From: Bifidobacteriaceae bacterium
GTDB taxonomy: Bacteria > Actinomycetota > Actinomycetes > Actinomycetales > WQXJ01
DNA: 40,716 nucleotides
Assembly: GCA_031255835.1 (NCBI GenBank)
Contig: JAIRRT010000192.1
Coordinates: 1-40,716 of the forward strand
Reading direction: 5' to 3'
The position numbers and the translations under genes were made by a program. Below are positions 2,431 to 26,126 of the stretch, piece after piece; within the stretch, counting starts at the first letter, position 1; each line of letters starts with the position of its first letter. The notes below the pieces were generated by a model that did not search any database, had not been told where the DNA came from, and was given only the letters and a program-made list of their open reading frames with translations.

Positions 2431-4608
2431 CCGCGTGACAGTTATTGTGTATGGCAGTTGCGTGGTGTTGTTCGCACTTTGCGAGAAGTGGCTAATCGCG
2501 ATGTAGTAGGTCTGACCGGCAGAAAGGGTGCGACGGATTTCGAACTGCCGGCCGCCTGCACTGTCGTCATCGAAGGTGATGGTGTTTCCCAGTGAGTCAT
2601 ACAGGGTTCCAAAAACGTCACCCGACGCGGCAGAAGTGAATGTCCATGCAGTCGAGTTCGGAGGAGTGAAGCGCCACCAGTCGACATCGTCGCCTCGCCC
2701 AAGCACACCGTCTACTCGTCCAGAACTGCCGTTGAACGCGAACTCGCAGGTGGTGTTTGGCGTGTCCAAACAGTCATCCAAGTACGCCTCCTGGTTGACC
2801 ACGATGGTCGCGGTCTCCGAGCCAGAGGTCACCGTGACGTGGCCCGTCCTGGAGCCACCCGGATAGGCCTGCGCTGTGATGCTCATCACGCGGCTGTCCG
2901 TGCCAACCTGGCTGGCCACAAGCCACGGGCTAGTGGACGTGATGCTCCACGGCGCACCGCCACTGTCCACAAAGACACGCCTTGTGGCGCCATATTCGGG
3001 CACATCCCAGAAGTCCTGGGAAAGGTTTAGGCCGAAGCGAGTGGATGCCATATCGACTCGCACCGTGGCAGATTCTTCAGCTATCTCCTCCACAGTGATC
3101 CGTAGCGCGCCAGTCTTGGAGAAGAACGTCTCACCCTCGTGGAAGAACATGTTCCCTGATTGGCTGTAATTGGCCGGGAACAGAACCACCATGTTGGGGT
3201 CATTCCTGTCCTGGTATGGCACATGGCGACTGATGGCGACTGACCGGCTCTCCACTGTGTCGTAGTAGTCAACCCAGTAGGTCACCGATCCGCCGTACGA
3301 ATTGTCGATGATCCTAAGCGCCTGCGGATCGTCTCGATCCGGCGTGCGGGCGGGGGTCAGAGTGTATCTGGCACCGTTTCTTGGACCCATCACAGTTGTG
3401 TAGCCGGAGCCGTCCTCGATGACGCCCTCCATGTACTTCTGTTCGCCCATGATCGAGTGCTCCATCCTGATGGTGGAGGAGCCCATGATGTTGTAGATGT
3501 TGCCGTAGTTGGAGACCGAACAGGCATCCGTTCCCGTTTTTTCTCCGTCCATATGGCCGGCTGGGCACTGCATGCTGCCTGAGTGAGCCAGACCGAAGTT
3601 GTGGCCCATCTCGTGCACAAACGTGGACAGCGGATAGGTAGGTGCTCCGGTGTCGGCGTTCGCGCCGACGATGGCGTGCAAGGAGCCGGGTGAGGCGAAG
3701 TTGGTCAGCAAGTAGCCGACTCCGGCGTATCCCGTATAGCAGGATCCTGTGTTCTCATCGCTGGGGGACAGGATCACAAGGTGTCGCTGTGCAGAGTTAT
3801 AGGTCCAGTTGTAGGCCTGTTGCCCATCCGCCCTGATCGCGTCGGTGGCTTCAGACTGGATTGTGGCCAAGGCTCCGGTGCAGTGGGCTTCGCTCTGAAC
3901 TGCCACGACGTCGTTCCAGTTGTAGCTGAACCCGGAGACCGCGCCGCGCGATTCTGTGCCCCACCACTGTGAGATGCCGTTGACGTATGCGTCGAGCTGG
4001 TTCTTGGACCAGAACACTCCTCGCCCGTCCTTCGACATAAACACGAAGTGCAGCGTGTGCTGATACGGGCCAGGCAAGTCGGCCATGGCATCGGCCGGCG
4101 ATTCGAGCACTGTGGCATCTTGCACACTGACCGGCTCATCGGAGTCGGCTAGGGCATCCAGCAGCACGGAGGCAACTTCCTCGGACTCGTCCAGGGGTGC
4201 GTCATCGGACACCTCAACTGCTGGGGCCTGGTCGATGTCCGCCAGGGCCTCGGGGGGCAACTCAGCGATCAGATCGCCCGGCACCTCCACAACGGCCTGG
4301 ATGATGTCGCCAGATGCGACTGAGGCATCGACGCTGTCAGATTCGACGTCGATGAACTGCTCGGAGCCGAACATGATCACGGCTTCGGAACTGTCGGGGA
4401 CAACAAGGAACTGGCCGGTCAAGGCGACATCTACGCCATCGGCCACCAGGTCATCCACAATGCCAGCTGCTGGTGGCGCGGCGGATTGCGCGGCCAACGC
4501 CGGCAGCCCGCCAATTCCGAGGGCGAGCGCCGCGGCGGCCATGATCGAGGGGATACGGAAAGCTTTCGACGCACCAAAACGCGTCAGGGAGCCAGGGACA
4601 TTCTTCAT
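1..4608 (-). CDS. Secreted multidomain zinc metalloprotease (metzincin HExxHxxGxxH) with a PPC-like domain and at least 10 BACON/Ig-like repeats. The C-terminus runs off the left window edge.
   Basis: The ORF is absent from the supplied track because it has no stop codon in the window. My manual reverse-complement translation from ATG 4608-4606 stays open in one frame down to position 1 (1536 codons). I checked for in-frame TTA/CTA/TCA over 1-100, 841-900, 1201-1280, 1861-1980, 2341-2460 and 2860-3330 and found none. The N-terminus MKNVPGSLTRFGASKAFRIPSIMAAAALALGIGGLPALAAQS looks like a Sec signal peptide. The zinc motif HEMGHNFGLAH lies at 3583-3615. A PPC-like segment DDVDWWRFTPPNSTAWTFTS...AGQTYYIAISHF lies at about 2480-2700. 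It is followed by repeats of the pattern W.A.SD..WLTVTP.SG. Confidence 0.8.
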   Translation of the reverse strand, partial: MKNVPGSLTRFGASKAFRIPSIMAAAALALGIGGLPALAAQSAAPPAAGIVDDLVADGVDVALTGQFLVVPDSSEAVIMFGSEQFIDVESDSVDASVASGDIIQAVVEVPGDLIAELPPEALADIDQAPAVEVSDDAPLDESEEVASVLLDALADSDEPVSVQDATVLESPADAMADLPGPYQHTLHFVFMSKDGRGVFWSKNQLDAYVNGISQWWGTESRGAVSGFSYNWNDVVAVQSEAHCTGALATIQSEATDAIRADGQQAYNWTYNSAQRHLVILSPSDENTGSCYTGYAGVGYLLTNFASPGSLHAIVGANADTGAPTYPLSTFVHEMGHNFGLAHSGSMQCPAGHMDGEKTGTDACSVSNYGNIYNIMGSSTIRMEHSIMGEQKYMEGVIEDGSGYTTVMGPRNGARYTLTPARTPDRDDPQALRIIDNSYGGSVTYWVDYYDTVESRSVAISRHVPYQDRNDPNMVVLFPANYSQSGNMFFHEGETFFSKTGALRITVEEIAEESATVRVDMASTRFGLNLSQDFWDVPEYGATRRVFVDSGGAPWSITSTSPWLVASQVGTDSRVMSITAQAYPGGSRTGHVTVTSGSETATIVVNQEAYLDDCLDTPNTTCEFAFNGSSGRVDGVLGRGDDVDWWRFTPPNSTAWTFTSAASGDVFGTLYDSLGNTITFDDDSAGGRQFEIRRTLSAGQTYYIAISHFSQSANNTTQLPYTITVTREQTLALSRSLWTADYSAQQLSVNVSTDGSWSLVSAPDWITVTPASGLSGPVQIAVTQNDDQVRDGLVVFGSGNATATLTVLQSGPPMRVIPASITLPPQGGSETFHVSLLAGNTWTLVSAPTWVTVSPTSGVGGEVSVSAQANNGQARTGSIELTTASGYTQTVTVAQAPADLSLSRTAFVADSQGEAVAVEVISNVPWTVASAPAWVSVTPAAGSAGRTQVRVSVSANGTGANRTGAVTVTGGGLSATLSISQLEVDTLSVTPGLWAPYGSASTTTVNLTTNGRPWRVTSTPAWVTASPNSGTGSATVMLTARANPGTSLRSGIVAFASGAATAQVNIAQGPSPTVSVSRTTWSAPGAGGSVSATVTTNQADWTATSDAGWLTVTPTSGPSGGSFELQAQPNPSSTRTARVTVSAGGTATRTLTVTQATAPRPTLTLSRTTWSAAVGGATTTSRVTTNQASWTATSDASWLTVSPASGGTGVDMQITAAANVAAARTGHITVSVVGVTGSLTRQVTVNQTAAPRPTVTVSRITWAAPVGGGSASATVTTNQANWMAASGESWLSVTPSVGTSGQTIAITAAPNPGAARSGKITVTATGPAGTASRDVTVSQAAATITSSLLSWAPVSTGSVTTPRITTNQSSWSAVSDSDWLTMTPTSGVSDDEVQWVAERNTGARRVGTITLSAGQVTRTITVTQAAATTATVTLGRTTWSAPSSAGSVSLSVSTNRVLWSATTSEPWLTASDMEGMTGRDVVLSVSPNPTSATRKATFTVTAGTTSRSVTVTQAAGPAPLTPSQESWVAPADGGQIS

Positions 4609-4901
4609 TTAGGGCACATCCAATATCTTTGGTAATCAGGTCTAGCCGCAGCGCGACGCCGCACTCGGTTAGGCGCATGAACCACCATCCTGGAACGCAG
4701 TTACGTCCCCGGCGGCAGTGCCCCGCCCCCCGAATGCCTGACGACATCCTCGCCGTCGGCCACGCACATGCTACCCGCCCAACCCCTCACAGCCCACACC
4801 CCCCGCCGTGCTCAACAAAGTGTGGTCCCGTGCTCACCCCCCAACGGCGGCCGCCCCAGGCGCCAGCGGGGGGTGAAAGGAGGGGTGGAAGGCGGGTGGA
4901 A

Positions 4902-6377
4902 CTAGATTAGGAGGAGTTCGTATAGGGGGGTTTGGTAGTAGCGATTTATTACGTAGACCAGGGAGATTACTAGCCATGCGACTGGCATGATTCGGACCAG
5001 GCGCATGTACCAGCGGCGGGTCATTTTGGCCAGGGCAGGCATGACGGGGAGTAGAAGCGGGAGGACTGGCAGGAAGTATCTGCCCTGCAGACCCCAGATG
5101 GTTGGCGCGCCGGGCTCGGAGCCGACAATGTACATACCCAGCGCGGTCACCCAAACGAATCCGACCGCCACCACCAGCAGGAACACTCGGGTGCGGCGGG
5201 GCAATACTGACAGCCGGCCGTGGTAGCACAGCAGGTAGGCGGCGGCGCAGATCAGGATCGGCACGGCCACACCCAGCGGCAAGGGAGTGTCCATGGCACC
5301 GAAGTTTCCGGCAAAGGAGATTATGTTGTCGTTGCCGCGCAGAGAGATGAATTCCCTGGTCATCAGCAAGAACGCCATCGCCGGGTGGTGAAGCAGGTAG
5401 GAGAACTGGAAGCTCGAATCGCGGCTGACGCCATCGTCGTAGCCGGCGGACAGGCCCTGGCTCGCCACATACAGCCAGCCCAAAGCACACATTCCGGCGA
5501 ACAGAATGATGCCGGCCTTGGCCGCCCAGCCGAAGCGCCTCAGCAGCCGGCCTGCCGGAACCACCAGCAGCGCACCCACGCACACAACCACGCCCGGTTT
5601 GGTCAGCGCCACCGCCCCGGCCAGGCCAGCCAGCCCGGCCACCTTGAGCCAACCGATTGGGCCACGCTCGGCGGTGCGGCGCAGATACAAGGCGAGGCTG
5701 ATGAACAGGGCGGACAGCCCAATCGACATGGCGTCCCCGCCCAGTACCGCTGATTGGGCCACCGCCATCGGCAACAACAGCAGCGCCGCCAGCCCCCACT
5801 GCTTGTCTCGCCACAGCCAAACCGCCAACACGCCCAGTGCCGTGCGGACTAGCAGGGTCAGCAGGCGGGCCAGCATGAAGATCCCACCTGGGCTCATATT
5901 GACGGTTTCCCCGACGATGACGGCCACCGCCTGGGGCAGGTGCGCTATCGGGGAATAACTCGAGGTGAGCGCCGTATTCACGACTTCCGTATCGTGCTTG
6001 TTCAGGGGGGTGTTGAACACCAAGTCTGCCGTTTGGGACAAGGAGGTCCTGACCGTCGGGTCCCAGTGGATCACCTTCCCCTCGGCATTCTTCTCACCCG
6101 TTTCCACCAGGCTCTTTGGGATCTCCACGACTGCTTGGCCATCGACCTTTTGAGAGATGAAGTGCCCATGGGCAACCTCGTAGGCGCGGTACATGTGGAC
6201 CGGCTCGTCCGGGGCGGCATTGATGGGCACGCAGACCGCGAACACCGTGCCGAACAGCAACGACACCGCGGCGTAGAACCAACACGGCCGGTTCCAGATC
6301 CGCCAGAACAGCCGTGTGGGCCGGGATGCGTGAGCTGGGGGCGCGGGGGGGTTGGTTGAGGCGGTTGGGGCGGTCAT
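4902..6377 (-). CDS. DUF2142-like polytopic membrane protein (predicted GT-C-like glycosyltransferase or polymer-modifying enzyme)
   Basis: The track ORF is 4902..6461 (GTG start). I prefer the internal ATG at 6377 (MTAPTASTNPP...), which is preceded by GGAGG. The sequence contains many hydrophobic helices. After the first TM helix the motif APDEPVHMYRAYEVAHGHF resembles the PDExxHxxRAY signature I associate with DUF2142. It is the last gene of the minus-strand sugar operon. Confidence 0.6.
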   Translation of the reverse strand: MTAPTASTNPPAPPAHASRPTRLFWRIWNRPCWFYAAVSLLFGTVFAVCVPINAAPDEPVHMYRAYEVAHGHFISQKVDGQAVVEIPKSLVETGEKNAEGKVIHWDPTVRTSLSQTADLVFNTPLNKHDTEVVNTALTSSYSPIAHLPQAVAVIVGETVNMSPGGIFMLARLLTLLVRTALGVLAVWLWRDKQWGLAALLLLPMAVAQSAVLGGDAMSIGLSALFISLALYLRRTAERGPIGWLKVAGLAGLAGAVALTKPGVVVCVGALLVVPAGRLLRRFGWAAKAGIILFAGMCALGWLYVASQGLSAGYDDGVSRDSSFQFSYLLHHPAMAFLLMTREFISLRGNDNIISFAGNFGAMDTPLPLGVAVPILICAAAYLLCYHGRLSVLPRRTRVFLLVVAVGFVWVTALGMYIVGSEPGAPTIWGLQGRYFLPVLPLLLPVMPALAKMTRRWYMRLVRIMPVAWLVISLVYVINRYYQTPLYELLLI

Positions 6378-6482
6378 GGCACAGCGGTCCTCCACATCGA
6401 GAAAGATACGCCCCAAAGCCACCTGAACGGCCCAGTGCTCAAGGCGACCGAACGCTAGCACACCCGCCCCCCACCAGGCAGG

Positions 6483-7202
6483 CTAGTTGCGGCGGGCTTG
6501 TTGCCACCATTCGGCTTGAGGTGCCAGGGCTGCTGGCATCGGCTCGGGTGGTTCGCACAGCGGCGCCCCGTCACCGCTCGGCGCGGGGGCGGCGGCGTAG
6601 CAGGATTCGAGGGTCTGGATCGCTTGGGGTGGGATGCCTTGGCGGGTCATGCCCACCTGGTTGGCGCCGTGGAGACGGGCGGGGTTGCCGTGGACCTTGG
6701 CGAATGGGGGGACATCGCGCGTGACCACTGAGCCTTGACCCACCATCGCGCCGGGGCCTATCACCCGGAACTGGTGCACCACTGCCGCCGCACCTACGTT
6801 CCCGGCCTGCCCAAGGCGCACGTGACCAGCCAAAATGGCCCCGAGAGCGCAAGTTACGCCATCGGACAGCTCGACATCGTGGGCAAGTTGGACGCGGGTC
6901 ATCAGGAAGCAGGAGCCGCCCACGCGAGTCTGGCGCCGCGACCCGCGCGAGATGGTCACCTGCTCGCGGATCACGTTGCCGTCGCCAATCACCACCCCGA
7001 ACTCCCCCGCCTGCTCAATCCAGTCCGCCGGGTGCGGGTAGCCGCGAATCTCCGGCAGCCCGCCGATGACGCACCCCGCCCCAATCCAGTTGTCTGACCC
7101 CAGCCGCGTGCCCGCCGCGATCACCGCCCACGGTCCAATGACATTGCCGTCACCCATCTGCACGCCATCGCCCACGATGGCGGTCGGGTGGACCGTGTTC
7201 AC
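6483..7202 (-). CDS. LpxA-family acyl-[ACP]--UDP-N-acetylglucosamine acyltransferase homologue (left-handed beta-helix plus LpxA-type C-terminal helical domain)
   Basis: The 239-aa ORF has a GTG start at 7202 that overlaps the stop of the upstream oxidoreductase (GTGA). Several motifs are co-linear with E. coli LpxA as I recall it. These are VHPTAIV at the N-terminus, IGDGNVIREQVTISRGS (LpxA: IGDRNRIRESVTIHRG), QLAHDVELSDG (LpxA catalytic-His context AHIAHDCTVG) and AILAGHVRLG...VHQFRVIGPGAMVGQGSVVTRDVPPF. The post-helix segment HGNPARLHGANQVGMTRQGIPPQAIQTLESCY matches LpxA G.N..GL.RRGFS.E.I..I..AY. Confidence 0.8.
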   Translation of the reverse strand: MNTVHPTAIVGDGVQMGDGNVIGPWAVIAAGTRLGSDNWIGAGCVIGGLPEIRGYPHPADWIEQAGEFGVVIGDGNVIREQVTISRGSRRQTRVGGSCFLMTRVQLAHDVELSDGVTCALGAILAGHVRLGQAGNVGAAAVVHQFRVIGPGAMVGQGSVVTRDVPPFAKVHGNPARLHGANQVGMTRQGIPPQAIQTLESCYAAAPAPSGDGAPLCEPPEPMPAALAPQAEWWQQARRN

Positions 7203-8176
7203 CGCTCGCCTTGGGTGGCCGCGGACAGGAGTTTGCCCACCACTTCATGGGGTGGGGCTATGGAGGCTCGCTCGGCCGCGGCATCGCCCTGGCCGGACAG
7301 GAGTTCCAAGAAGCGGTCCAGTTGGGCCGCGAGGGGCTCGCGGCTGGTGACCAGCTCGGGGATCTCGATTACGGCCTGCTGGCGGTAGCCCCGGCCGTCT
7401 GGCCCAATCGCCTCGCCGGCAACGTGCTGGTAGATGATGACATCGCGCAGCAGCAGGTCAATCTCGATGGACCGCTCGAGTTCATAGACCACCAGTTGGC
7501 GGACCTTGCGCTGAGCCAACCGGCTGGCCGAGACACTGGCAATGGCACCGGTGTCGAACTGGATGGTTGCCTCGACCACGTCCTCTGCGCCGACCGCTGA
7601 ATGGGGCGAGAACGCGCCCACCACGCCGCTGGCATCCACGGCCCGCCCGCCGGCAAACCGCAGCGCCAGATCGACATCGTGGATGGCCAAATCCCAGCCA
7701 ACCCCGGTGACTATCCGAGGCGCGTAGGGGGAATGCCGCACTGACCGCAGCGCAATGGGCGCCTTGACCAGCGGCAACGCCGTCACAACGGCCGGATTGA
7801 AACGCTCCAGCAGCCCGCACATCAACGGGATGTCACGCTGCCGCGACACCTCCAGCAGTTGGCGTGTCTGGTCAATCGACGCAGTCAGCGGCTTCTCAAC
7901 CAGCAGCGGCAGGCCGGCATCCAGGACGTGGCGAGCTACGGCATCGTGCGCGGGGGTGGGGGCGGCGATCACCACGCCATCCACGCCTGCCAGCGATCCG
8001 ACATCGCCGCGCCATGTCGTGTTCCACCGAGCGGCCAGCGCTTGGCCCACCGCCTGGTCCGGATCAACCACGCCAACCAGCCGCGCGTCGGGGTGCGTCG
8101 AGATCACGCGCGCATGCAGCGACCCCATCTGACCGGCCCCCACCAGGAGCAACGCGGCCGGCGCCCGCCCGGTCAT
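7199..8176 (-). CDS. Gfo/Idh/MocA-family NAD-dependent sugar-nucleotide dehydrogenase (GnnA/WbpB/WlbA-like)
   Basis: The track ORF is 7199..8449. I chose ATG 8176 (MTGRAPAALLLVGAGQMGSLHARV...) because it overlaps the stop of the upstream aminotransferase by 4 bp (ATGA), and because the upstream extension is Arg/Pro-rich junk. The sequence has a Rossmann motif VGAGQMG and the family-typical EKP motif in PLLVEKPLT. Confidence 0.8.
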   Translation of the reverse strand: MTGRAPAALLLVGAGQMGSLHARVISTHPDARLVGVVDPDQAVGQALAARWNTTWRGDVGSLAGVDGVVIAAPTPAHDAVARHVLDAGLPLLVEKPLTASIDQTRQLLEVSRQRDIPLMCGLLERFNPAVVTALPLVKAPIALRSVRHSPYAPRIVTGVGWDLAIHDVDLALRFAGGRAVDASGVVGAFSPHSAVGAEDVVEATIQFDTGAIASVSASRLAQRKVRQLVVYELERSIEIDLLLRDVIIYQHVAGEAIGPDGRGYRQQAVIEIPELVTSREPLAAQLDRFLELLSGQGDAAAERASIAPPHEVVGKLLSAATQGER

Positions 8177-9270
8177 GCCAGCAGCCTTCGCACAGCGGCG
8201 ATGATCTGGGCGACATCGCCGGAACTCAAGGCTGGATGGACAGGGAGCGAGACGACTTGCGAGGCGAGGCGGCGCGCCACCGGGACATCGCACACTTGTA
8301 CACGCGGGTGGTTCAGATACACCGGATAGTCGAACACAACTTTCGGATAGTAGACCCCGCAGCCGATGCCGGCCTCCGCCAGTCCCTCCACGAACTGTTC
8401 GCGCGTGAGGCGGGCCTCGGGCGTCAGGCGCACGGTGTATTGGTGCCACACGTGCCCGCGGCCGGGCAGCGCCTGCGGGACAACCAGCCCTTCGATGCCT
8501 TTCAGACCCTGGTTCAGCGCGGCCGCATTGGCCTGCCGCGCCGAGACGTTGGCGGCGTAGCGGTCGAGTTGCGGCAACACCAAAGCCGCCTGGAGATCGG
8601 TCAGCCGATAGTTGTGACCAGCCATAACGTATTCGTAGCGCTGCCGCATGCCCTGGTTGCGCAGCACCTGTAGCCGCTCGGCAAGGTCAGCATCATTGGT
8701 GGTCACCATGCCGCCCTCGCCGGTGGTCAGATTCTTGGTCCCATAAAACGAGAAGCCGCCGATGCCGTAGCTCCCCACTGCTTTCCCGTTCAGCGTGGCG
8801 CCGTGGGACTGGGCTGCATCCTCCACAACGGCCAGGCGGTGTTTCTGGGCAATCGGCATGAGCTGGTCCATCGGCGCGGCTTGGCCATACAGATGTACCG
8901 GCATTAGCACGCGTGTTCGAGGCCCCAAGGCGGCCCCTACGGAAGCTGGATCAATGGCGAAATCCGCCTCTGCGACATCGGCGAACACCGCTGTGGCGCC
9001 AGCCTCCAGGATGGCGTTGAGGGTGGCAACAAACGTCAGCGGACTGGTGATGACTTCATCGCCCGGCTGGAGTTGCAGCGCTTCGAGGGACGCCACCAAG
9101 GCTGTGGTGCCGCTCGAGACCGCCACGGCGTGGGCGCAACCGGTCATCTCGGCGAAGCGCCGCTCGAACTCGGCCACCACTGCGCCCTGGGCCAACCGGC
9201 CGGAGCGGAGCACTTCAACGGCCATGGCGATGGAATCTTCGCCCAGGTCAACACGGGAAATGGGTATCAA
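8173..9270 (-). CDS. DegT/DnrJ/EryC1/StrS-family PLP-dependent sugar aminotransferase (GnnB/WbpE-like)
   Basis: The ORF is 365 aa with a TTG start at 9270, preceded by GGGAG 5 nt upstream. Family motifs are present: RFAEMTGCAHAVAVSSGTTAL, the VEDAAQSHGA Asp/Gln region, and the PLP-lysine context FSFYGTKNLTTGEGGMV. Confidence 0.9.
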   Translation of the reverse strand: MIPISRVDLGEDSIAMAVEVLRSGRLAQGAVVAEFERRFAEMTGCAHAVAVSSGTTALVASLEALQLQPGDEVITSPLTFVATLNAILEAGATAVFADVAEADFAIDPASVGAALGPRTRVLMPVHLYGQAAPMDQLMPIAQKHRLAVVEDAAQSHGATLNGKAVGSYGIGGFSFYGTKNLTTGEGGMVTTNDADLAERLQVLRNQGMRQRYEYVMAGHNYRLTDLQAALVLPQLDRYAANVSARQANAAALNQGLKGIEGLVVPQALPGRGHVWHQYTVRLTPEARLTREQFVEGLAEAGIGCGVYYPKVVFDYPVYLNHPRVQVCDVPVARRLASQVVSLPVHPALSSGDVAQIIAAVRRLLA

Positions 9271-9334
9271 GGCGGCTCCCGCAGGGCGGTCGGGTCAGTG
9301 CGTCGCAGACCCTAGCACATGGCATCATTGCCCG

Positions 9335-10312
9335 GTGATCAGCAGCCAGACGGACCGCCCCCGGCGCAGCGCGCTGCTCGGGGCGGACCGGCGGGCCGGC
9401 ATCGCCGCTGTGTTGCGGTGGGTCGCCATCGTGGTGGTGGTTGGCGCGGCGGTTTGGGTGCTGGCATCCAACTGGGACGAGGCGCTGGCAACCGCCCGCG
9501 CGGTCCATCCACTGTCGCTTGGACTGTCGCTTTTGGTGCTGATGGCTGGATCTGCGGCGGCAACCATGAGTTGGCAGGTGCTGCTGGACGGGTTGGGCCC
9601 ACCGGTCGGCATACCTCGCGGATTCCAGATTTATCTTGTGGGGTTGCTGGGCAAATACGTACCGGGCTCTGTGTGGGCATACCTGCTCCAAATGGAGCTG
9701 GGAAAGCGCCATGGCGTGTCGCGCCCAAGGGTGCTGGCGGCGTCGCTGTTCGCTGCCGGTATCGGTGTGGTTGGCTCGCTGGTGCTTGGGCTGGCGGCGC
9801 TGCCGGCCATAAGCGGGGTTGACAGGCGGCTTTACTGGCTCTACGCCATCATCCCGCTCGGTCTGGCCGTGCTCAATCCGCGGGTGATGACGTGGATGGC
9901 CCGCCTGGTGTTCCGCCTGATGCGCCGCCCCGCGCCCGATGTCGCACTGCGCGGCCGGACGGTGGCGGCCGCCTTCGGATGTGTGCTGGTTGCATACGTG
10001 ATGTTTGGCCTGCACCTTTGGCTGCTGGCCAACTCCCTGGCCCAACCGACCATCTCCACTTTGGCGCTGTGCATCGGCGCATCAGGGTTGGGCATGACTG
10101 CCGGGCTATTCGCCTTCTTCATGCCATCCGGGCTGGGCGCGCGCGAGGCCGTGCTGGGCGCTGCCCTGGCCACCGTGCTATCCGTGGGCCAAGCCAGCGC
10201 GTTGGCGGTCGGTTCACGCATCATGTTCACCGTTTCCGATCTGGCGTTGGCGGGCATGGCCGCCGGCCTGGCCGTGCTGGCCGCCAGACGCACGCGGTCC
10301 CGGACCGTCTAG
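9335..10312 (+). CDS. UPF0104 / lysylphosphatidylglycerol-synthase-TM-type flippase-like membrane protein
   Basis: This is the C-terminal two-thirds of track ORF 8795..10312. The 5' part of that ORF is antisense to the DegT gene, so it cannot be real. The first plausible in-frame start after 9270 is GTG 9335 (MISSQTDRPRRSALL...). The protein has about 8 hydrophobic helices. The motifs LLGKYVPGSVW and MPSGLGAREAVLG match the P.G.G..E pattern of this family. The start coordinate is uncertain. Confidence 0.6.
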   Translation: MISSQTDRPRRSALLGADRRAGIAAVLRWVAIVVVVGAAVWVLASNWDEALATARAVHPLSLGLSLLVLMAGSAAATMSWQVLLDGLGPPVGIPRGFQIYLVGLLGKYVPGSVWAYLLQMELGKRHGVSRPRVLAASLFAAGIGVVGSLVLGLAALPAISGVDRRLYWLYAIIPLGLAVLNPRVMTWMARLVFRLMRRPAPDVALRGRTVAAAFGCVLVAYVMFGLHLWLLANSLAQPTISTLALCIGASGLGMTAGLFAFFMPSGLGAREAVLGAALATVLSVGQASALAVGSRIMFTVSDLALAGMAAGLAVLAARRTRSRTV

Positions 10313-10379
10313 ACTTGGGCGGCGTCCGCCCCGGCCAGCCCTGGCCAGCCATTGGGCGGGCGGCGCACCCGCTAGTGGA

Positions 10380-11537
10380 ATGGACCAGATGACGCACCAG
10401 GACCGTGTTGTTCCGCTCGGCCAACCCACCGTCGGTCAGGCCGAACTCGACGCCATCCGGGACGTCTTCGACTCCGGCTGGCTGGCCGGCGCCGGCCCAA
10501 CCTGCCGGCAGTTCGAGACCGAGTTGGCCGCAGCATGCGGCACAGCCCACGCGCTAGCCACCGCCAATTGCGGATCGGCACTCCATTTGGCTTTGCAGGT
10601 GCTCGATGCCGGCCCTGGCCAAGAGGTGATTGTTGCCGATTACACCTTCCCCGCCACCGGCCACGCCGTCGCCTGGACAGGCGCAACGCCCGTCTTCGCG
10701 GACATCCTGCCCGGCAGTTGGTGCGTGGATCCCGCCGCGGTGACCGCCGCCATCACCCCCCGGACCGCCGGGATCATCGCCGTTGACGCATTTGGCCAGC
10801 CGGCCGGCTACGCCGAGTTGGCGGACATCGCCGCAGCTCACGGCCTGTGGCTCATAGAAGACGCCGCCTGCTCAGTAGGCGCTACCTATCAGGGCCGGCC
10901 AGCCGGATCCTTTGGAGACATCGCCGCCGTTTCATTCCACGGCCGCAAGGGCATCACCGCCGGCGAGGGCGGCGCGCTTTTGACCGATAACCCCGAATGG
11001 GCCGCCCGCGCCCGGCGCCTCCACACCTACGGCACAGAACCGGCCATCAGCCGCGAAGGCGCCACCGGGCTTCCAATACCGCACTTTGCCGAGATTGGCC
11101 GCAACTACCGCATGTCAGATGTCGCCGCAGCCATAATGCGCGTGCAACTGACCAGATTGCCTGACCTATTGGCGGCCCGCAACCAAACCGCTGCCCACTA
11201 TCGCGAATTGCTGGGCGACGTTCCGGAAATTGACTTGCCGAACGTCATCGGCGGGCGGACTCATTCCTGGCAATCATACGTGCCGACGATGGCGCCGCAT
11301 ATTGACCGCGATGCCGTCGCCGCACAATTGCGGGCCGAGGGCGTCCAATGCAATTTCGGAACGTATGCCTCTCACCTCTTGCCGGTGTATGAGTCTGCAA
11401 GCCGCTGCCCCGTCTCGGCCGATGTGTTTGCCCGGCATTTGGCCATTCCGATGCACGCCAATTTGACCGCCAGCCAAGTCGAGCGGGTCGCAGCCACCCT
11501 GCGGGCCGCCGTCACCAACCCAGCCAACCGGCGGTAA
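10380..11537 (+). CDS. DegT/DnrJ/EryC1/StrS-family PLP-dependent sugar aminotransferase (second copy)
   Basis: The ORF is 385 aa. Family motifs are present: GQAELDAIRDVFDSGWL, IEDAACSVGA, and the PLP-lysine context VSFHGRKGITAGEGGAL. An alternative ATG lies at 10389. Confidence 0.9.
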   Translation: MDQMTHQDRVVPLGQPTVGQAELDAIRDVFDSGWLAGAGPTCRQFETELAAACGTAHALATANCGSALHLALQVLDAGPGQEVIVADYTFPATGHAVAWTGATPVFADILPGSWCVDPAAVTAAITPRTAGIIAVDAFGQPAGYAELADIAAAHGLWLIEDAACSVGATYQGRPAGSFGDIAAVSFHGRKGITAGEGGALLTDNPEWAARARRLHTYGTEPAISREGATGLPIPHFAEIGRNYRMSDVAAAIMRVQLTRLPDLLAARNQTAAHYRELLGDVPEIDLPNVIGGRTHSWQSYVPTMAPHIDRDAVAAQLRAEGVQCNFGTYASHLLPVYESASRCPVSADVFARHLAIPMHANLTASQVERVAATLRAAVTNPANRR

Positions 11538-11562
11538 CCTGCCGCCCCCACCGAGGAGTCCC

Positions 11563-12501
11563 ATGTCCGCAAACCCCAGCAAGACGGTGTTCTTTACCGG
11601 CGGAGCCGGCTTCATCGGGCTGCATGTGCTGCCCATGCTGTTGGCCGAGGGCTACCACGTCCGGGTGTTTGACAACATGTTCCGAGGTGACAGGGCCGCC
11701 ATCGCCCGGCTGGAAGGGACCGGCCAGGTTGAGTTGATTGACCAGGACGTACGCTACGGCGGGGCTGTGCATGCGGCCATGAAGGGTTGCAGCAAGGTCA
11801 TCCACGCGGCCGCTGTTTCGATCAACAAGAGCCAGGCTGACCCATACGAATCGCTTGACATCAACCTGATTGGCGAGCACAACGTCTTCGCCGCGGCTGT
11901 TGATCATGGCGTGGACCGGCTGGTGTTCTGCTCCAGCGCGTCAGTTTATGGCGATCCAACCCACCTGCCCATGCATGAGGACGATGTCCTCGATCCGCTC
12001 ACTCCGTACTGCATTTCCAAGCGTGCCGGCGAGGATCTGTTGCGGTATTACGAGCGCCGCGCCGGGTTGAACTGGATTGCGTTGCGGTTCTTCAACGTTT
12101 ACGGCCCGGGGCAAAAGACAACCGCCTATTACACGTCAGTCATCAACCATTTTGTGAACAGGTTGCGGTCTGGCGAACCGCCCGTCATTGACGGCAAAGG
12201 CGAACAGTCGATGGATTTCATTCATGTCCACGATATCGCCCGGGCCGTTGTGCTCGCTTTGACGGCTGAGCAGGGCAATATGGCGATCAATATCGGCACA
12301 GGGATAGACACTTCGATTGCTGAGCTTGCCCGAATCCTGATCGAGGCTGCCGGGGCGGACGTGGAGCCGATTTTCAACCCGCGTGACGTCCTGGTCTCCC
12401 GCCGGGCTGCCGATATCACCAGGGCCAAAGACGTGCTCGGATTCGCCCCATCGATTGCCGTGCGCGACGGCATGACAGACCTGATCCGGAGCGGCGGATG
12501 A
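11563..12501 (+). CDS. Extended-SDR NAD-dependent sugar-nucleotide epimerase/dehydratase
   Basis: The ORF is 312 aa, with GAGGAG 5 nt upstream of the ATG. It has the motif TGGAGFIG (GxxGxxG) and the catalytic YxxxK as YCISK preceded by CSSASVYG. Confidence 0.85.
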   Translation: MSANPSKTVFFTGGAGFIGLHVLPMLLAEGYHVRVFDNMFRGDRAAIARLEGTGQVELIDQDVRYGGAVHAAMKGCSKVIHAAAVSINKSQADPYESLDINLIGEHNVFAAAVDHGVDRLVFCSSASVYGDPTHLPMHEDDVLDPLTPYCISKRAGEDLLRYYERRAGLNWIALRFFNVYGPGQKTTAYYTSVINHFVNRLRSGEPPVIDGKGEQSMDFIHVHDIARAVVLALTAEQGNMAINIGTGIDTSIAELARILIEAAGADVEPIFNPRDVLVSRRAADITRAKDVLGFAPSIAVRDGMTDLIRSGG

Positions 12502-13034
12502 GCCCCGCAACGCCCCCATCCACTGGCGCGCCAACCGGCGGGCCCACCGCCGGGCCCACGCCCACCTCTGACCCCCCACCCACCCGGCCGGGTCTGCCGC
12601 CCAACCCTTACAACCCGCTGGCCTGGATCATTGGCGAGCCCTCCATAGGTGAGGGCACCTGGATTGGCGCGTTCACCGTCATCGACGGCTCCGGAGGACT
12701 GCAGATTGGCTCGGGGTGCGACATCGGCGCTGGCTGCCAGATCTACACCCACTCCTCCGCACGGCGCTGCGTGTCCGGCCGGCGCTACGGCGAAGTTGAC
12801 CGCAAGCCGGTGACCATGGGCGACAGGGTCTTCATGGGCCCCGGCGCCATGGTGTTCATGGGTGTCGAGGTGGGCGATGAAGCCGTCATCTGCGCAGGTG
12901 CCATGGTCACCCGCTCGGTTCCCCCACGCACAATCGTGGCGGGCGTGCCAGCCCGGCCAATCGGCATCGTCCAATTCGATGACCCGGCCAGCCCGCGATT
13001 TGTCCTCACCGACCCACCAACTGGGCAGATCTGA
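12498..13034 (+). CDS. Hexapeptide-repeat (LbH) acyl/acetyltransferase with a Pro-rich N-terminal extension
   Basis: The ORF is 178 aa. Its ATG overlaps the stop of the epimerase gene (ATGA). Hexapeptide repeats are visible: IGEGTWIGAFTVIDGSGGLQIGSGCDIGAGCQI and VFMGPGAMVFMGVEVGDEAVICAGAMV, followed by VAGVPARPIG. The first 40 aa or so are low-complexity Pro/Thr/Gly. Confidence 0.8.
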   Translation: MSPATPPSTGAPTGGPTAGPTPTSDPPPTRPGLPPNPYNPLAWIIGEPSIGEGTWIGAFTVIDGSGGLQIGSGCDIGAGCQIYTHSSARRCVSGRRYGEVDRKPVTMGDRVFMGPGAMVFMGVEVGDEAVICAGAMVTRSVPPRTIVAGVPARPIGIVQFDDPASPRFVLTDPPTGQI

Positions 13035-14227
13035 TGCGCATCGCCGTTGTCAACAACTTCTTCCCGCCGCGGGTGGGTGGCTCGTCCCACCTGTCCCACA
13101 CCCTGGCCACGCGCTACGCCCAGGCCGGCCACAAAGTCCTGGCCGTCACCGCCGCCTACCGCGATGCCCCCACATTCGAGGCGTTCGATGGCGGTCACAT
13201 AGTCCGCCTCCCGGCTTTCCAGATCCCCGAGACCCCTCTGGCCTTGAACTTCGACATCAGCTTTGCCACCAGGCCGTCGCTGCCGCGCCGGTTGGCTCGG
13301 ATCCTCGACGCGTTCAAGCCCGACGTCATCCACCAACACGGCCAGTTTTTCGACCTGACCTGGGCAAGCGGACTGTATGCGCGGCGGCGCGGCATCCCGA
13401 CGCTGCTCTCGGTGCACACTCGGCTGGAGAACCCGACGGCGCTGTATCGCGGCGCACTGCGGTACATCGACGCCTGCTTGGTGCGCCCGGCTCTGCTGGC
13501 GTACCGGCCAAACATGGTGGTCATGGACCGGCTGATGCGCAGCTACATCACCGAGCGCTACCCCGGCGCCTACCGCGAACTGTTCGATATCCCCGTCGGG
13601 ATTGACCCGGTGGCGGCGGCAGGTGGGGACGGCGGCGTTGGGCGGGCCAAGCTCGGGCTTGAGCCGGATGTGCCGCTGATTGTCTCGGTGGGCCACGTCA
13701 TCCCGCTGCGGGATCGGGTTGCCCTTGTCGAGGCCCTGCCGCATGTGCGCCGCCACATCCCGCAGGTCAAGCTGGCCGTCATCGGCGAGGTGTATTACGA
13801 CGTGTTCTCCCGGCGCGCGGCCGAGCTTGGTGTGTCCGATTCCGTCATCCAAGTTGGCCCGGTTCCCAAGGCTGACGTGCCGCATTACCTGGCCGCCGCC
13901 TGGGTGGAGAGCCACGAGCAGGGCTACGGCCTGGGCACCGCGACGCTGGAGGCGATGGCCGCCGGGGTGCCGGTGGTGGCCGCCGCCCGGCCCGACAACT
14001 TTGCGCCACTGGCGTTGACTGACCGCCGCGAACTGTTCCTCGCCCCGCCTGGCGATACCCCCGCCCTCGCCGCCGCGCTGACCGAGGCGCTGTCCAACCG
14101 GGCTCTGGCCGGGCAGGTTGGGCTTGCCGGCCAGGAGTTCGCCTTGGCCCACTTCACACTCGATGCCGTCACAAACCAGCACCTCGACGTGCTTGGCGAG
14201 TTGGCCAAGGAGGCGAGCACAGCGTGA
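13034..14227 (+). CDS. GT4-family (GT-B fold) glycosyltransferase
   Basis: The ORF is 397 aa. Its ATG overlaps the upstream stop (TGATG). The N-terminus MRIAVVNNFFPPRVGGSSH and the C-terminal motif ESHEQGYGLGTATLEAMAAGVPVVAA are typical of Glycos_transf_1/GT4 enzymes. Confidence 0.85.
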   Translation: MRIAVVNNFFPPRVGGSSHLSHTLATRYAQAGHKVLAVTAAYRDAPTFEAFDGGHIVRLPAFQIPETPLALNFDISFATRPSLPRRLARILDAFKPDVIHQHGQFFDLTWASGLYARRRGIPTLLSVHTRLENPTALYRGALRYIDACLVRPALLAYRPNMVVMDRLMRSYITERYPGAYRELFDIPVGIDPVAAAGGDGGVGRAKLGLEPDVPLIVSVGHVIPLRDRVALVEALPHVRRHIPQVKLAVIGEVYYDVFSRRAAELGVSDSVIQVGPVPKADVPHYLAAAWVESHEQGYGLGTATLEAMAAGVPVVAAARPDNFAPLALTDRRELFLAPPGDTPALAAALTEALSNRALAGQVGLAGQEFALAHFTLDAVTNQHLDVLGELAKEASTA

Positions 14228-15411
14228 ACCGCACCGATATTGCTGTGGTGGGGGCCGGCATCGTCGGCTTGGCAGTGGCGGAGGCTTTGTCCCGTCAAGG
14301 TCGCCATGTGACAGTACTGGAGAAGGAACCGACGATGGCGGCCCACCAGACTGGCCGCAATTCTGGGGTTATCCATTCGGGCATCTATTACGCCCCGGGC
14401 AGCTTGAAGGCGCGGTTGTGCCGGGCGGGGGCGGCGTCGATGGCGCGGTTCGCTGAGGAGCACGGTGTTGCTCGCGGACCGAGCGGCAAGGTGATTGTGG
14501 CGACGCGGCCGAGCGAACTGCCTGCTCTGAGGGCGCTGGCGGCCCGGGCCGGGGCCAACGGGATCGAGGCGCATCAGGTGACGCGCGCACAGGTGGCCGA
14601 ACTTGAGCCGCATGTTGGCGCCATCGCCGGCCTGCATTTGCCCGGCACGGGGACCATCGATTACTCCCAGGTTTGCCAGGCGTTGGGCGCGCTGGTGGTC
14701 AGCCAGGGCGGCGAGGTGCTGCTGGGGCAGCGGCTGGTGGCGGCGCGGACGGTGGGCGAGACGGTCGAGATCAGCCTGGCGGACGGCTCGCGGCTCGCGG
14801 CGAATGGCCTGATCAACTGCGGTGGGCTGCATTCGGATGAGATCTGCTCGGCCTGCGGCGTGGACCCAGGCGTCCGGATTGTGCCGTTCCGGGGCGAGTA
14901 CTACGAGCTGGCGCCTGACAGGCGGGACCTGGTGCGCAGCCTGGTCTATCCGGTGCCTGACCCGCGGTTCCCCTTCCTCGGGGTGCATCTGACGCGCATG
15001 GTTGACGGGTCGGTTCACGCCGGGCCGAATGCTGTGCTGGCGCTGGCGCGGGAGGGGTACACCTGGCGCGATATCCAGCTGGACGATCTAGCCGGCACGC
15101 TGACATGGCCCGGATTCTGGCGCCTGGCCGCGCGCTATGCACCCGCCGGCGCCAAGGAGATGGCCCGCTCCGCATCGATGCGCCTGTTCGCCGCGTCCCT
15201 GGTCCGCTTGGTGCCGGAGATCGAGCCCAGCGACCTCCGCCCAGCCCCCGCCGGAATCCGCGCCCAAGCCCTAACCGCCACCGGCGCCCTAGTAGACGAC
15301 TTCCTAATCCGCCGAGCCCCCCGCCAAATCCACGTCCTAAACGCCCCCTCCCCAGCAGCCACAGCCGCCCTAGAAATAGCCCACCACCTATCAACCCAAT
15401 CCCCCACCTAA
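14224..15411 (+). CDS. lhgO: FAD-dependent L-2-hydroxyglutarate oxidase/dehydrogenase (LhgO/YgaF family)
   Basis: The ORF is 395 aa. Its GTG start overlaps the GT4 stop (GTGA). It carries the FAD motif DIAVVGAGIVGLAVAEAL, then HQTGRNSGVIHSGIYYAPGSLKA, FRGEYYEL and FLGVHLTRMVDGSVHAGPNAV, which match the LhgO family as I recall it. The gene symbol is given at family level only. Confidence 0.75.
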   Translation: MNRTDIAVVGAGIVGLAVAEALSRQGRHVTVLEKEPTMAAHQTGRNSGVIHSGIYYAPGSLKARLCRAGAASMARFAEEHGVARGPSGKVIVATRPSELPALRALAARAGANGIEAHQVTRAQVAELEPHVGAIAGLHLPGTGTIDYSQVCQALGALVVSQGGEVLLGQRLVAARTVGETVEISLADGSRLAANGLINCGGLHSDEICSACGVDPGVRIVPFRGEYYELAPDRRDLVRSLVYPVPDPRFPFLGVHLTRMVDGSVHAGPNAVLALAREGYTWRDIQLDDLAGTLTWPGFWRLAARYAPAGAKEMARSASMRLFAASLVRLVPEIEPSDLRPAPAGIRAQALTATGALVDDFLIRRAPRQIHVLNAPSPAATAALEIAHHLSTQSPT

Positions 15412-15547
15412 CCCCACCACCCGCGCCGCTCGCGCCGGCAGCGCCGGCACCCGCCCCCAACGGGCCACCGCCGCAACTGCTCAAAACACCACCTCACCTC
15501 CGGTTTCCCGTCCCGTTGTGAGCACTTTCGGTTGTCGCTGTCACCCG

Positions 15548-15823
15548 TCCGCCGATGGCGTTCAGACGTTGGGGGTGTTCGCCCTGTAGCGCGTGCGTTG
15601 GGTAGGGGTTCGATGCCGCTGGCGGCATGCCTTTTGGAGCCGGTCACCGAATTCTTCTGGGGATGATGCGTGTGGTCCAGGGTTTCGTGATGTCGGTGGG
15701 TTTGGTGGTGGTCCGGTTCCCAGACGTCGCGTGGTTCGGATCCCGGACCTGGGTGCGGACAAGGAGGTGTGCGGGCGTGCCTCCTCCAACCTCACCATCC
15801 AGTGTGTGGACGGCCTGATCGGA
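15548..15823. repeat. Head module of a modular intergenic repeat element (left copy), homologous to 39766-40211
   Basis: Blocks of nucleotide identity are shared with the right-hand copy. The shared blocks are gccgatg.cg.tca.acgttggg, gtaggggttcgatgccgctggcggcatgcctttt, ggtcaccg, tctggggatgatgcgtgtggtc...ttcgtgatgtcggtgggtttggtggtggtccggttcccagacgtcg.gtggttcggatcc, and acctcacc immediately before the tandem array. Confidence 0.8.
15613..15635 (+). terminator. Possible intrinsic-terminator-like hairpin inside the head module
   Basis: The inverted repeat is ATGCCGC-tg-GCGGCAT (15613-15628), followed by gcc and TTTT (15632-15635). The sequence is identical in the right-hand copy (39828-39850). 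The stem is short and the U-tract is only 4 nt long, so this call is weak. Confidence 0.3.
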
Positions 15824-16130
15824 GGTGCTTAACTGACCAATTGAGCCGCCTGGCTCGCCAATTGGTCACTTAAGCACATCCACCTCGACGGGCCTGAGCA
15901 CAAGCGGGCAGGTGAACGGCCTGGTCGGAGGTGCTTAACTGACCAATTGAGCCGCCTGGCTCGCCAATTGGTCACTTAAGCACATCCACCCCGACGGGGC
16001 TGAGCACAAGCGGGCAGGCGAACGGCCCGGTGGGGAGTGCTTAACTGACCAATTGAGCCGCCTCCCACGCCAATTGGTCACTTAAGCACATCCACCTCGA
16101 TGGGGCTGAGCACGGCAGGGCACGCAGGAA
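15824..16130. repeat. Tandem array of 3 units of 106 bp, each containing an imperfect palindrome of about 53 nt (left locus)
   Basis: The landmark gcttaa recurs at 15827, 15933 and 16039, giving a period of exactly 106 bp. In unit 1 the left arm GTGCTTAACTGACCAATTG is at 15825-15843, the loop agccgcctggctcgc is at 15844-15858, and the right arm CAATTGGTCACTTAAGCAC is at 15859-15877. The third unit degenerates after about 16115. Confidence 0.9.
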
Positions 16131-26076: not shown

Positions 26077-26126
26077 CCTAGCTCGCTGACCTGACGGATC
26101 TGCGCAACCCGCTCAGGGCCGGGAGG

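Follow-up and report, generated by a model that had tools for sequence, protein, structure and literature searches.

What does a compact cluster of ten genes for sugar-modifying and membrane proteins make, and where does its product go? This question is raised by contig JAIRRT010000192.1 of a Bifidobacteriaceae bacterium (assembly GCA_031255835.1), which was analysed over its whole length of 40,716 bp (the window below) and which carries such a cluster at positions 4902–15411. An earlier sequence-only reading had listed ten genes with named families in two divergent operons and had suggested a role in glycoconjugate synthesis; the list of open reading frames (ORFs) and the Pfam/NCBIfam scans recovered the same genes and the same families. 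We propose, with moderate confidence, that the cluster is a self-contained system by which N-acylated amino sugars are added, via a lipid-linked intermediate, to a polymer or lipid already present in the envelope. Lipid-linked extracytoplasmic glycosylation is an already known kind of system, and the cluster would be a variant of it.

In the proposed scheme, all steps of which we infer from family assignments, fold matches, gene coupling and co-occurrence, a Gfo/Idh/MocA oxidoreductase (Gfo) would oxidise UDP-N-acetylglucosamine (UDP-GlcNAc) at C3, a DegT-family, pyridoxal phosphate (PLP)-dependent aminotransferase (DegT1) would aminate the 3-keto sugar, and an LpxA-like left-handed β-helix (LbH) acyltransferase would N-acylate the new amine, giving UDP-GlcNAc3N(acyl) with a probably short acyl group. 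A second aminotransferase (DegT2), an epimerase-type extended short-chain dehydrogenase/reductase (SDR) and a small LbH acetyltransferase may produce a second, N-acetylated amino sugar or modify the first one further. At the cytoplasmic face, the GT4 glycosyltransferase would load the sugar onto a lipid acceptor in the membrane; flipping of the lipid-linked sugar would fall to the stand-alone MprF-type UPF0104 protein, and the GT-C-like DUF2142 protein would transfer the sugar to the final acceptor outside the membrane. The L-2-hydroxyglutarate oxidase LhgO may re-oxidise L-2-hydroxyglutarate, formed when 2-oxoglutarate resets the tightly bound NADH of a sugar dehydrogenase; this step would regenerate 2-oxoglutarate and pass electrons to the respiratory chain.

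The minus-strand operon comprises, in the direction of transcription, the genes of DegT1 (8173–9270), Gfo (7199–8176), the LpxA-like protein (6483–7202) and the DUF2142 protein (4902–6461), and the plus-strand operon comprises those of UPF0104 (9335–10312), DegT2 (10380–11537), the SDR (11563–12501), the small LbH enzyme (12498–13034), GT4 (13034–14227) and LhgO (14224–15411). The start-to-start spacer between the operons, read from the sequence, is 64 bp long (9271–9334), in agreement with the earlier estimate, and all five start/stop overlaps reported previously were found in place by direct reading: GTGA at 7199–7202 and ATGA at 8173–8176 in the minus-strand operon, and ATGA at 12498–12501, TGATG at 13032–13036 and GTGA at 14224–14227 in the plus-strand operon. 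The Gfo gene is overlapped at both ends, at 7199–7202 by the LpxA-like gene and at 8173–8176 by the gene of DegT1. Start/stop overlaps are common in high-G+C operons, and the five junctions support a presumed co-translation of the genes that they join. The description of the operons as tightly coupled holds for these junctions, but not for the DUF2142 gene, which is separated from the LpxA-like gene by a gap of 21–105 bp, with no overlap. The length of the gap depends on the ambiguous DUF2142 start, which is either GTG at 6461 (519 aa) or ATG at 6377 (491 aa, the Logan gene call); a further alternative, GTG at 6266, would truncate the first transmembrane helix. The G+C content of the cluster (0.63–0.69) is the same as that of the remainder of the window, and this unremarkable base composition ruled out a horizontally acquired island. 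A sigma-70 consensus scan of 4400–16300, of low informativeness for a high-G+C actinobacterium, found nothing in the 64-bp spacer; the same scan gave one promoter-like site where 1.5 were expected and three terminator-like sites where 7.2 were expected, numbers that are likewise uninformative. As the sequence-only reading had claimed, no Wzx, Wzy, Wzm/Wzt or other polysaccharide ABC exporter and no priming transferase was present among the large window ORFs scanned, nor was a UDP-sugar 6-dehydrogenase, 2-epimerase or polymerase among the scanned ORFs; GT2 and GtrA were also not found in the window.

The comparison of related genomes indicates that these genes belong together. A total of 81 non-redundant genome loci anchored on the LpxA-like gene were compared, each with flanks of ~10 kb as far as the contig extended, and the final counts are based on tblastn. 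The LpxA-like family (~230 aa) is widespread in Actinobacteria (Cellulomonas, Actinotalea, Pengzhenrongella, Leifsonia, Agromyces, Microbacterium, Cryobacterium, Blastococcus, Lentzea, Umezawaea, Rhodococcus, Tetrasphaera and one Streptomyces), and the window copy is 45–65% identical to its members. Gfo is present in 72 of the 81 loci and DegT1 in 69, and in 69 loci both are kept together with the LpxA-like gene; then follow UPF0104 (47 loci), a GT2 glycosyltransferase designated GT2a (40), the SDR (39), the small LbH enzyme (34), DegT2 (29), LhgO (28), GT4 (26), DUF2142 (21) and GtrA (17). The DegT2–SDR–LbH–GT4 block occurs in 23 loci, and several families share a canonical nine-gene order, where LhgO on the minus strand is followed by DegT2–SDR–LbH–GT4 (plus), Gfo–DegT1 (minus) and LpxA-like–UPF0104 (plus). 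The window contains the genes of this canonical module rearranged into two divergent operons, and this order was found nowhere else in the genome scan or on the metagenome contigs anchored on UPF0104. The metagenome loci, anchored independently of the LpxA-like gene, carry the same genes; the best UPF0104 match on a long metagenome contig (60% identity) stands in the canonical order. The neighbourhood search that the sequence-only reading had proposed thus recovered the genes in relatives but not their order in the window, and the enzyme mix, which that reading had called unusual, recurs within Actinobacteria, only the two-operon arrangement being unique to the window. Homologous clusters already assigned to a known polymer, of which the same reading had warned, were not found in the literature searched; the module is conserved in Actinobacteria, and no published characterisation of it was found in that literature. 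In four loci of the Tetrasphaera/Jatrophihabitans type (L068, L039, L079 and L082), genes of TagF-like CDP-glycerol glycerophosphotransferases and of DUF6077/DUF6541 polytopic proteins flank the nine-gene module, which suggests a teichoic-acid-type polymer as a possible acceptor in these lineages.

The distribution of the membrane components among the loci offers a suggestion for how the module works. UPF0104 and GtrA co-occur in none of the 81 loci (Fisher p = 2e-8, uncorrected for phylogeny), and the GtrA loci always contain a GT2: in 17 Microbacteriaceae loci, a DegT1–Gfo–GtrA–GT2 operon is divergent from the LpxA-like gene, with DUF2142 adjacent in 13 of them. The exclusion of UPF0104 by GtrA, together with the constant presence of GT2 in the GtrA loci, points to an Arn-like, three-component decoration logic, with UPF0104 standing for GtrA and GT4 for GT2. 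For GT4, the odds ratio is 0.19 with GT2a, a negative association, and reaches 63 with DegT2 and 10 with UPF0104; 10 UPF0104 loci that lack GT4 carry GT2a instead. Taken as gene distribution, the UPF0104/GtrA and GT4/GT2 exchanges are the pattern of what would be non-orthologous replacement within one functional scheme. A polytopic GT-C-like protein (DUF2142, PMT_2-like, DUF7657, DUF6077 or DUF6541) is encoded in 45 of the 81 loci, and the earlier suggestion that the pathway acts on an existing acceptor fits the GtrA/GT2/DUF2142 architecture of the sister loci.

Searches with the individual proteins point to a 3-amino sugar as the product of the first branch. The Gfo enzyme matches Pfam GFO_IDH_MocA and its C-terminal domain; its top NCBIfam match is the archaeal UDP-GlcNAc 3-dehydrogenase NF040723 (125 bits, below the cut-off of 450), and its top Protein Data Bank (PDB) match is 7bvj/7bvk (97 bits), which we take to be GnnA, the UDP-GlcNAc 3-dehydrogenase of Acidithiobacillus ferrooxidans. 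No WbpB/WlbA-type entries were found among its PDB matches down to E = 1e-10. DegT1 (Pfam DegT, 393 bits) contains the PLP lysine motif SFYGTK..GEGG and matches WbpE among the PDB entries at 197 bits; the PDB neighbours of both DegT proteins leave the carbon position acted on undecided. The proposed pairing of DegT1 with the Gfo enzyme, a putative UDP-GlcNAc 3-dehydrogenase, is indicated by the stop/start overlap of their genes and by the position of DegT1 next to Gfo in 69 loci. The 3-amino branch postulated earlier is supported both by the closest solved relative of Gfo and by the conserved trio.

The LpxA-like protein, the putative N-acyltransferase of the 3-amino sugar, does not reach the cut-off of either LpxA model of NCBIfam (NF003657, 170.9 bits, cut-off 226; TIGR01852, 156.2 bits, cut-off 231), and its match spans only positions 23–218 of the 264 positions of the model, but PDB entries of LpxA match it at 1e-44 to 1e-47, and in the PDB search the family scored far higher against LpxA than against the sugar N-acetyltransferases WlbB, PglD and QdtC. 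The PDB entry 8e62 (189 aa) falls in the same subfamily; no paper describing it was found in the literature search. An alignment of 24 family members with E. coli LpxA, the residue numbering of which checked out, indicates that H108, H127, H143/Q144, N181 and R187, invariant in the family, correspond to H125, H144, H160/Q161, N198 and R204 of LpxA. The GlcNAc-binding loop of LpxA (Q73, D74, L75, K76) is deleted in the family, with a conserved PPE(V/I)RGxxH..W in its place, and the C-terminal helical domain is shortened, matching the first 41 of the 82 positions of Pfam Acetyltransf_11. In NCBI and JGI records, many relatives are named UDP-GlcNAc acyltransferases, which is probably incorrect in detail. 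The Microbacterium loci L046 and L071 carry, ~8 kb away from the first copy and at ~18.0–18.1 kb, another and divergent LpxA-like paralogue with 33–35% identity to the protein of the window. Literature searches on GnnA/GnnB and on Gram-positive LpxA yielded no account of this gene module.

The proteins supposedly acting at the membrane are the UPF0104, GT4 and DUF2142 proteins. UPF0104 passes the gathering cut-off of Pfam LPG_synthase_TM (39.6 bits against 33.4) and has 7–8 hydrophobic segments; its AlphaFold2 model (pLDDT 89.8, pTM 0.86) was compared with the PDB using Foldseek, and the best six matches were all MprF (probability 1.0, TMq 0.50–0.62). Since an aminoacyl-phosphatidylglycerol synthase domain is lacking, the protein appears to be a stand-alone PplT, a relative of the MprF flippase domain, and judging by the modelled fold it is proposed as a candidate flippase for the lipid-linked sugar, as had been suggested before. 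The GT4 enzyme, of the GT-B fold, matches Pfam Glycos_transf_1 and Glyco_transf_4, and its top PDB match is weak, the phosphatidylinositol-mannoside mannosyltransferase PimB' (55 bits). Downstream of the cluster, at a distance of ~7 kb, a BacA/UppP undecaprenyl-diphosphatase is encoded on the minus strand (22327–23151); its presence there might bear on the recycling of a lipid carrier or be coincidental.

The DUF2142 protein (Pfam, 171 bits against a cut-off of 30) has ~9–10 hydrophobic segments, and its family alignment contains an invariant PDE..H loop motif after the first transmembrane helix. Foldseek matches of its AlphaFold2 model (pLDDT 85) are weak (E 0.02–0.3, TMq ~0.35), and nearly all of them are GT-C enzymes (Pmt, STT3, ArnT, ALG, Emb, AftB, PglB); together with the Pfam family, the topology and the motif, these matches are consistent with the earlier view of a GT-C-like protein, here a candidate glycosyltransferase acting outside the membrane. 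WpsI and WpsJ, DUF2142 proteins linked to the wall polysaccharide of lactococci (PMC12599335, PMC9746298), are predicted to be its polymerase and transferase (PMC12599335). A DegT and Gfo pair and a GT2 also lie beside the gene of the closest homologue of the window protein (29% identity), the surrounding locus being of the rhamnan type, with genes for Wzt and WsaF-like proteins. In that locus (L087, 8001–16567), the DegT and Gfo pair is followed by a DegT-like protein of 488 aa, a metallophosphoesterase, an ATP-grasp enzyme, an SDR and GT2. An LpxA-like gene is missing from this locus, where acylation of the amino sugar may be the task of the ATP-grasp enzyme.

LhgO had been described as an LhgO-like oxidase, to which no role had been assigned; the family was correct but understated, since the protein exceeds the cut-off of the NCBIfam equivalog NF008726 (514.9 bits against 299), matching model positions 2–387 of 389. 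It is a flavin adenine dinucleotide (FAD) enzyme of the DAO family with the N-terminal FAD-binding GxGxxG motif (VVGAGIVGLA, residues 8–17), and its gene is coupled to that of GT4 by the GTGA overlap. In 17 of the 28 loci with LhgO, its gene is located within 450 bp of a module gene, mostly divergent from DegT2, and its frequency is far above the expectation for a single-copy gene in a 20-kb neighbourhood. The association is stronger with the DegT2 block (odds ratio 9), a hint at the epimerase-like SDR as a possible source of 2-hydroxyglutarate. The known lhgO contexts are csiD-lhgO-gab and lhgR-lhgO (PMC8206213), and neither is present at the window cluster. In WbpB, the bound NADH is re-oxidised at the expense of 2-oxoglutarate; the D-2-hydroxyglutarate formed in this way has to be recycled, and O-antigen production falls when the D-2-hydroxyglutarate dehydrogenase is lost (PMC8651671). 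By analogy, a dehydrogenase of the cluster may make L-2-hydroxyglutarate, which LhgO would recycle, the presence of LhgO being the sole and indirect pointer to such a product; a search of the literature on 2-hydroxyglutarate together with UDP-GlcNAc found no description of this module.

The second branch is less clearly defined. DegT2 (Pfam DegT, 346 bits) keeps the PLP lysine in the motif SFHGRK..GEGG, and its closest PDB relatives are perosamine synthase, DesI and ArnB, which are presumably all C4-acting enzymes; ArnB matches both DegT proteins at 172–196 bits. The SDR contains the motif SSASVYG...YxxxK, and its top PDB match is 6wjb/6wj9 (156–159 bits), which we take to be the UDP-GlcNAc 4-epimerase PelX. 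It is the best-conserved gene of the module (70–83% identity). A 4,6-dehydratase or a decarboxylase was ruled out for this protein, the respective TDE and STSE signatures being absent. The small LbH protein (Pfam Hexapep and Hexapep_2) has as its top PDB match 8vr6 (89 bits), annotated as a putative acetyltransferase. ATG at 12498 is the sole in-frame start codon of its gene, and 12498–12620 encode a Pro/Thr/Gly-rich N-terminal extension of ~40 aa, which is apparently missing from the homologues of Pengzhenrongella and Agromyces (148–153 aa). The consecutive PDB codes 8vr2, 8vr3/8vr5 and 8vr6 belong to an SDR, a DegT aminotransferase and an acetyltransferase resembling the second branch of the window; no relevant paper on structures 8VR2/3/6/7 was found in the literature search. 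Two amino-sugar branches, as had been supposed, agree with the behaviour of the DegT2, SDR and small LbH genes as a separate block that travels with GT4, but both enzyme sets could also act successively on one sugar.

Such successive action underlies an alternative that we regard as doubtful, in which the Gfo, DegT1 and LpxA-like enzymes would act at C3 and then the SDR, DegT2 and small LbH enzymes at C4 of one UDP-hexose. The product would be a 2,3,4-tri-N-acylated triamino sugar, the transfer of which would need one GT4; the SDR and/or Gfo would release a keto sugar as their bound NADH is re-oxidised by 2-oxoglutarate, with LhgO recycling L-2-hydroxyglutarate, and the lipid-linked sugar would cross the membrane on the MprF-type PplT. 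If so, sugar oxidation would be powered by the respiratory chain via LhgO, and the MprF-type flippase family would be extended to glycolipids or polyprenyl-linked sugars and be interchangeable with GtrA. A different possibility, which we hold tentatively, concerns the fate of the sugar: GT4 might glycosylate a glycerolipid (phosphatidylglycerol, phosphatidylinositol or diacylglycerol), and UPF0104 might flip the product, which would stay in the outer leaflet as a membrane amino-glycolipid like those of GpgSDF/HexSDF, with DUF2142 belonging to another pathway or being accessory. GT4 and UPF0104 stand together in 23 of the 26 GT4 loci, as in the pairing of GpgS with GpgF (PMC12713373), and GT-B domains fused to PplT occur in Actinobacteria (bioRxiv 10.1101/2022.03.11.483950). 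PimB', the best solved relative of GT4, acts on phosphatidylinositol mannoside, 17 GT4 loci have no GT2 nearby, and glycerophospholipids are the sole substrates known so far for MprF-type domains; nevertheless, GT4 scores 29.8 bits against the GpgS model NF053787, the cut-off of which is 480, and the cluster contains no deacetylase. The GtrA family flips polyprenyl-phosphate sugars, and the mutual exclusion of UPF0104 and GtrA in loci that otherwise share the sugar genes speaks against a glycerolipid, as do the replacement of GT4 by GT2a in some UPF0104 loci and the frequency of GT-C-like proteins.

It is improbable that the cluster does no more than provide UDP-GlcNAc3NAc, an acetamido sugar or similar nucleotide-activated precursors to a wall polysaccharide of the conventional kind or a teichuronic-acid-like polymer assembled by genes elsewhere, with UPF0104 and DUF2142 in unrelated membrane roles. 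The utr cluster of Streptomyces griseus does combine similar enzymes (PMC13274773), and many sister loci sit among Wzy_C, GT2, GT4, RmlC/RmlD and TagF-like genes; but the 6-dehydrogenase, 2-epimerase, polymerase, exporter and priming transferase are all absent from the scanned ORFs of the window, and UPF0104 is tightly linked to the LpxA-like gene in the sister loci, often by overlapping stop and start codons. That UPF0104 alternates with GtrA, and GT4 with GT2a, further argues for membrane proteins that form an integral part of the module. A glycolipid resembling a lipid A precursor in a monoderm is very unlikely. Here the LpxA-like enzyme would move a medium or long (3-hydroxy)acyl chain from acyl-acyl carrier protein (acyl-ACP) to UDP-GlcNAc3N, GT4 would glycosylate the product and UPF0104 would flip the amphiphile. 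LpxA of Leptospira and Acidithiobacillus acylates UDP-GlcNAc3N from acyl-ACP, the combination of GnnA-like, DegT and LpxA-like proteins follows the logic of GlcN3N-type lipid A, and the family keeps the catalytic and part of the UDP-binding residues of LpxA and scores far better against it than against the sugar N-acetyltransferases. At the same time, the protein misses both LpxA equivalog cut-offs, and at the hydrocarbon-ruler position G173 of LpxA the family has Met and the window protein Gln, an occupancy that shortens the acyl chain accepted by LpxA. Furthermore, no Lpx family member (LpxC, LpxD, LpxH or LpxB) was found among the window ORFs scanned, no ACP gene was found in the window or in the 85 loci searched (L001–L086), and the GtrA-type loci evidently pass their product to a GT2/GtrA/GT-C route that handles ordinary sugars.

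The decoration of an existing envelope polymer or lipid via a lipid-linked intermediate, which we prefer, has its own difficulties. We know of no GT4 that loads a sugar onto polyprenyl phosphate, and the window contains no GT2; the lipid carrier may be a polyprenyl phosphate or a glycerolipid. The resemblance of the SDR to a plain 4-epimerase leaves DegT2 without an obvious source of a keto sugar. The fold matches of DUF2142 are weak (E at least 0.02, TMq ~0.35), the window protein is a sequence outlier (28–29% identity to its best homologues) that lacks translational coupling, and DUF2142 is present in only 21 loci; the association tests over the 81 loci (Fisher tests and odds ratios) ignore phylogenetic relatedness. 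With respect to LhgO, the Gfo enzyme is nearer to 7bvj/7bvk, presumably GnnA, than to WbpB, we know of no evidence that GnnA uses 2-oxoglutarate, and LhgO is missing from all 17 GtrA-type loci, which do carry Gfo. Besides, the product of WbpB is D-2-hydroxyglutarate and not the L form (PMC8651671).

If the proposed model is right, Actinobacteria would possess a widespread route for presenting N-acylated diamino sugars on the cell surface, and the stand-alone UPF0104/PplT family would gain a testable substrate class beyond aminoacyl-phosphatidylglycerol, which the UPF0104/GtrA replacement supports. In sugar oxidation, LhgO would serve biosynthesis as a housekeeping enzyme, in parallel with the link between D-2-hydroxyglutarate and WbpB in Pseudomonas. 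Surface decorations serve as phage and toxin receptors, as shown for the teichuronic-acid-like polymers of Streptomyces (PMC13274773). Three ideas can be tested: 3-amino sugars of monoderm bacteria would be acylated by an LpxA-fold N-acyltransferase, GtrA and an MprF-type flippase would be able to replace each other, and an L-2-hydroxyglutarate shuttle would be part of sugar biosynthesis.

The remainder of the window has features of its own. Positions 1–4608 on the minus strand are occupied by a single ORF without interruption, which is longer than 1500 codons and continues past the left window edge, with a signal-peptide-like N-terminus, the zincin motif HEMGHNFGLAH and repeated Ig-like segments. 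The stretch 1900–4900, of lower G+C content and without listed ORFs, was considered as non-coding, which was ruled out by codon-position G+C and translation, both indicating one long minus-strand ORF; Rfam and tRNA scans of this stretch found nothing, and the plus-strand ORFs 98–874, 1274–1879 and 4085–4612 are spurious, representing the reverse frame of the long ORF. Located together at 24811–30465 are the genes of a class-I Cys-tRNA-synthetase-like protein of 421 aa that may be the mycothiol ligase MshC, of a PAC2-family protein and of B12-dependent methionine synthase, a grouping typical of actinomycete housekeeping contexts. The stretch 31259–35060 encodes a PG_binding_1 protein and, after it, an ABC ATPase with a permease of the MacB/FtsX type; the sole ABC system of the window (33070–35060) is of this MacB/FtsX type and not of the polysaccharide-export type. 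At 35324–39652, a GH3 protein of 1442 aa has an unusual domain order, with Glyco_hydro_3_C at residues 55–316, an Fn3-like domain at 381–452 and the Glyco_hydro_3 N-domain at 670–836.

A comparison with known systems indicates where the cluster resembles them and where it departs from them. WbpB/WbpE/WbpD and the S. griseus utr cluster share with the window an oxidase/aminotransferase pair and an LbH N-acyltransferase leading to 2,3-diacylamido sugars (PMC8651671, PMC13274773); in utr, the aminotransferase/oxidase pair, an N-acetyltransferase and a 4-epimerase give ManNAc3NAcA and GalNAc for a teichuronic-acid-like polymer, and 2,3-diacetamido sugars occur in Streptomyces wall polymers (PMC13274773). 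Unlike these systems, the window lacks a WbpA-type 6-dehydrogenase and a 2-epimerase, so its product is probably not a uronic acid, and the recycling enzyme is the L-specific LhgO, whereas WbpB makes D-2-hydroxyglutarate. In GpgSDF of Pseudomonas aeruginosa and HexSDF of Clostridioides difficile, a GT4 and a stand-alone UPF0104 are likewise united in one amino-sugar operon, and GpgS (GT4) and GpgF (UPF0104) make GlcN-phosphatidylglycerol (PMC12713373). The window differs in the lack of a deacetylase, in a GT4 that is not a GpgS orthologue, and in seven additional sugar-modifying genes and a GT-C-like protein. The GnnA/GnnB/LpxA route of Acidithiobacillus and Leptospira similarly uses a Gfo-family 3-dehydrogenase, a DegT enzyme and an LpxA-fold acyltransferase on a UDP-sugar, but the LpxA-like protein of the window misses the LpxA cut-offs and the GlcNAc loop, the other Lpx proteins are absent and the phylum is monoderm.

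The Arn pathway (ArnA, B, C, D, E/F and T), which modifies lipid A with L-Ara4N, resembles the scheme in having an SDR, a DegT aminotransferase, an N-acylated UDP-amino sugar (transient in Arn), a lipid-linked intermediate, a flippase and a GT-C enzyme; ArnB matches both DegT proteins, and ArnT is among the fold matches of DUF2142. In contrast to Arn, the SDR of the window has no decarboxylase signature, and there is no formyltransferase, deformylase, ArnC-type GT2, ArnE/F or lipid A gene; the host, judging by its closest homologues, appears to be an actinobacterium. The three-component systems include GtrA/GtrB with a Gtr-type GT-C enzyme, GtcA/GtlA/GtlB of Listeria, GacI-L of Streptococcus and mycobacterial PpgS/Rv3632/Rv3779, for the GalN of arabinogalactan. 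As in the proposed scheme, a nucleotide sugar gives a lipid-linked monosaccharide, which is flipped and moved to an existing polymer by a polytopic GT-C protein. The exact three-component set is found in the sister Microbacteriaceae loci, where the DegT1–Gfo–GtrA–GT2 operon is combined with DUF2142; in the window, GT4 stands in place of GT2 and UPF0104 in place of GtrA, and to this plan the window adds an unusual diamino-sugar synthesis and an LhgO encoded within the cluster.

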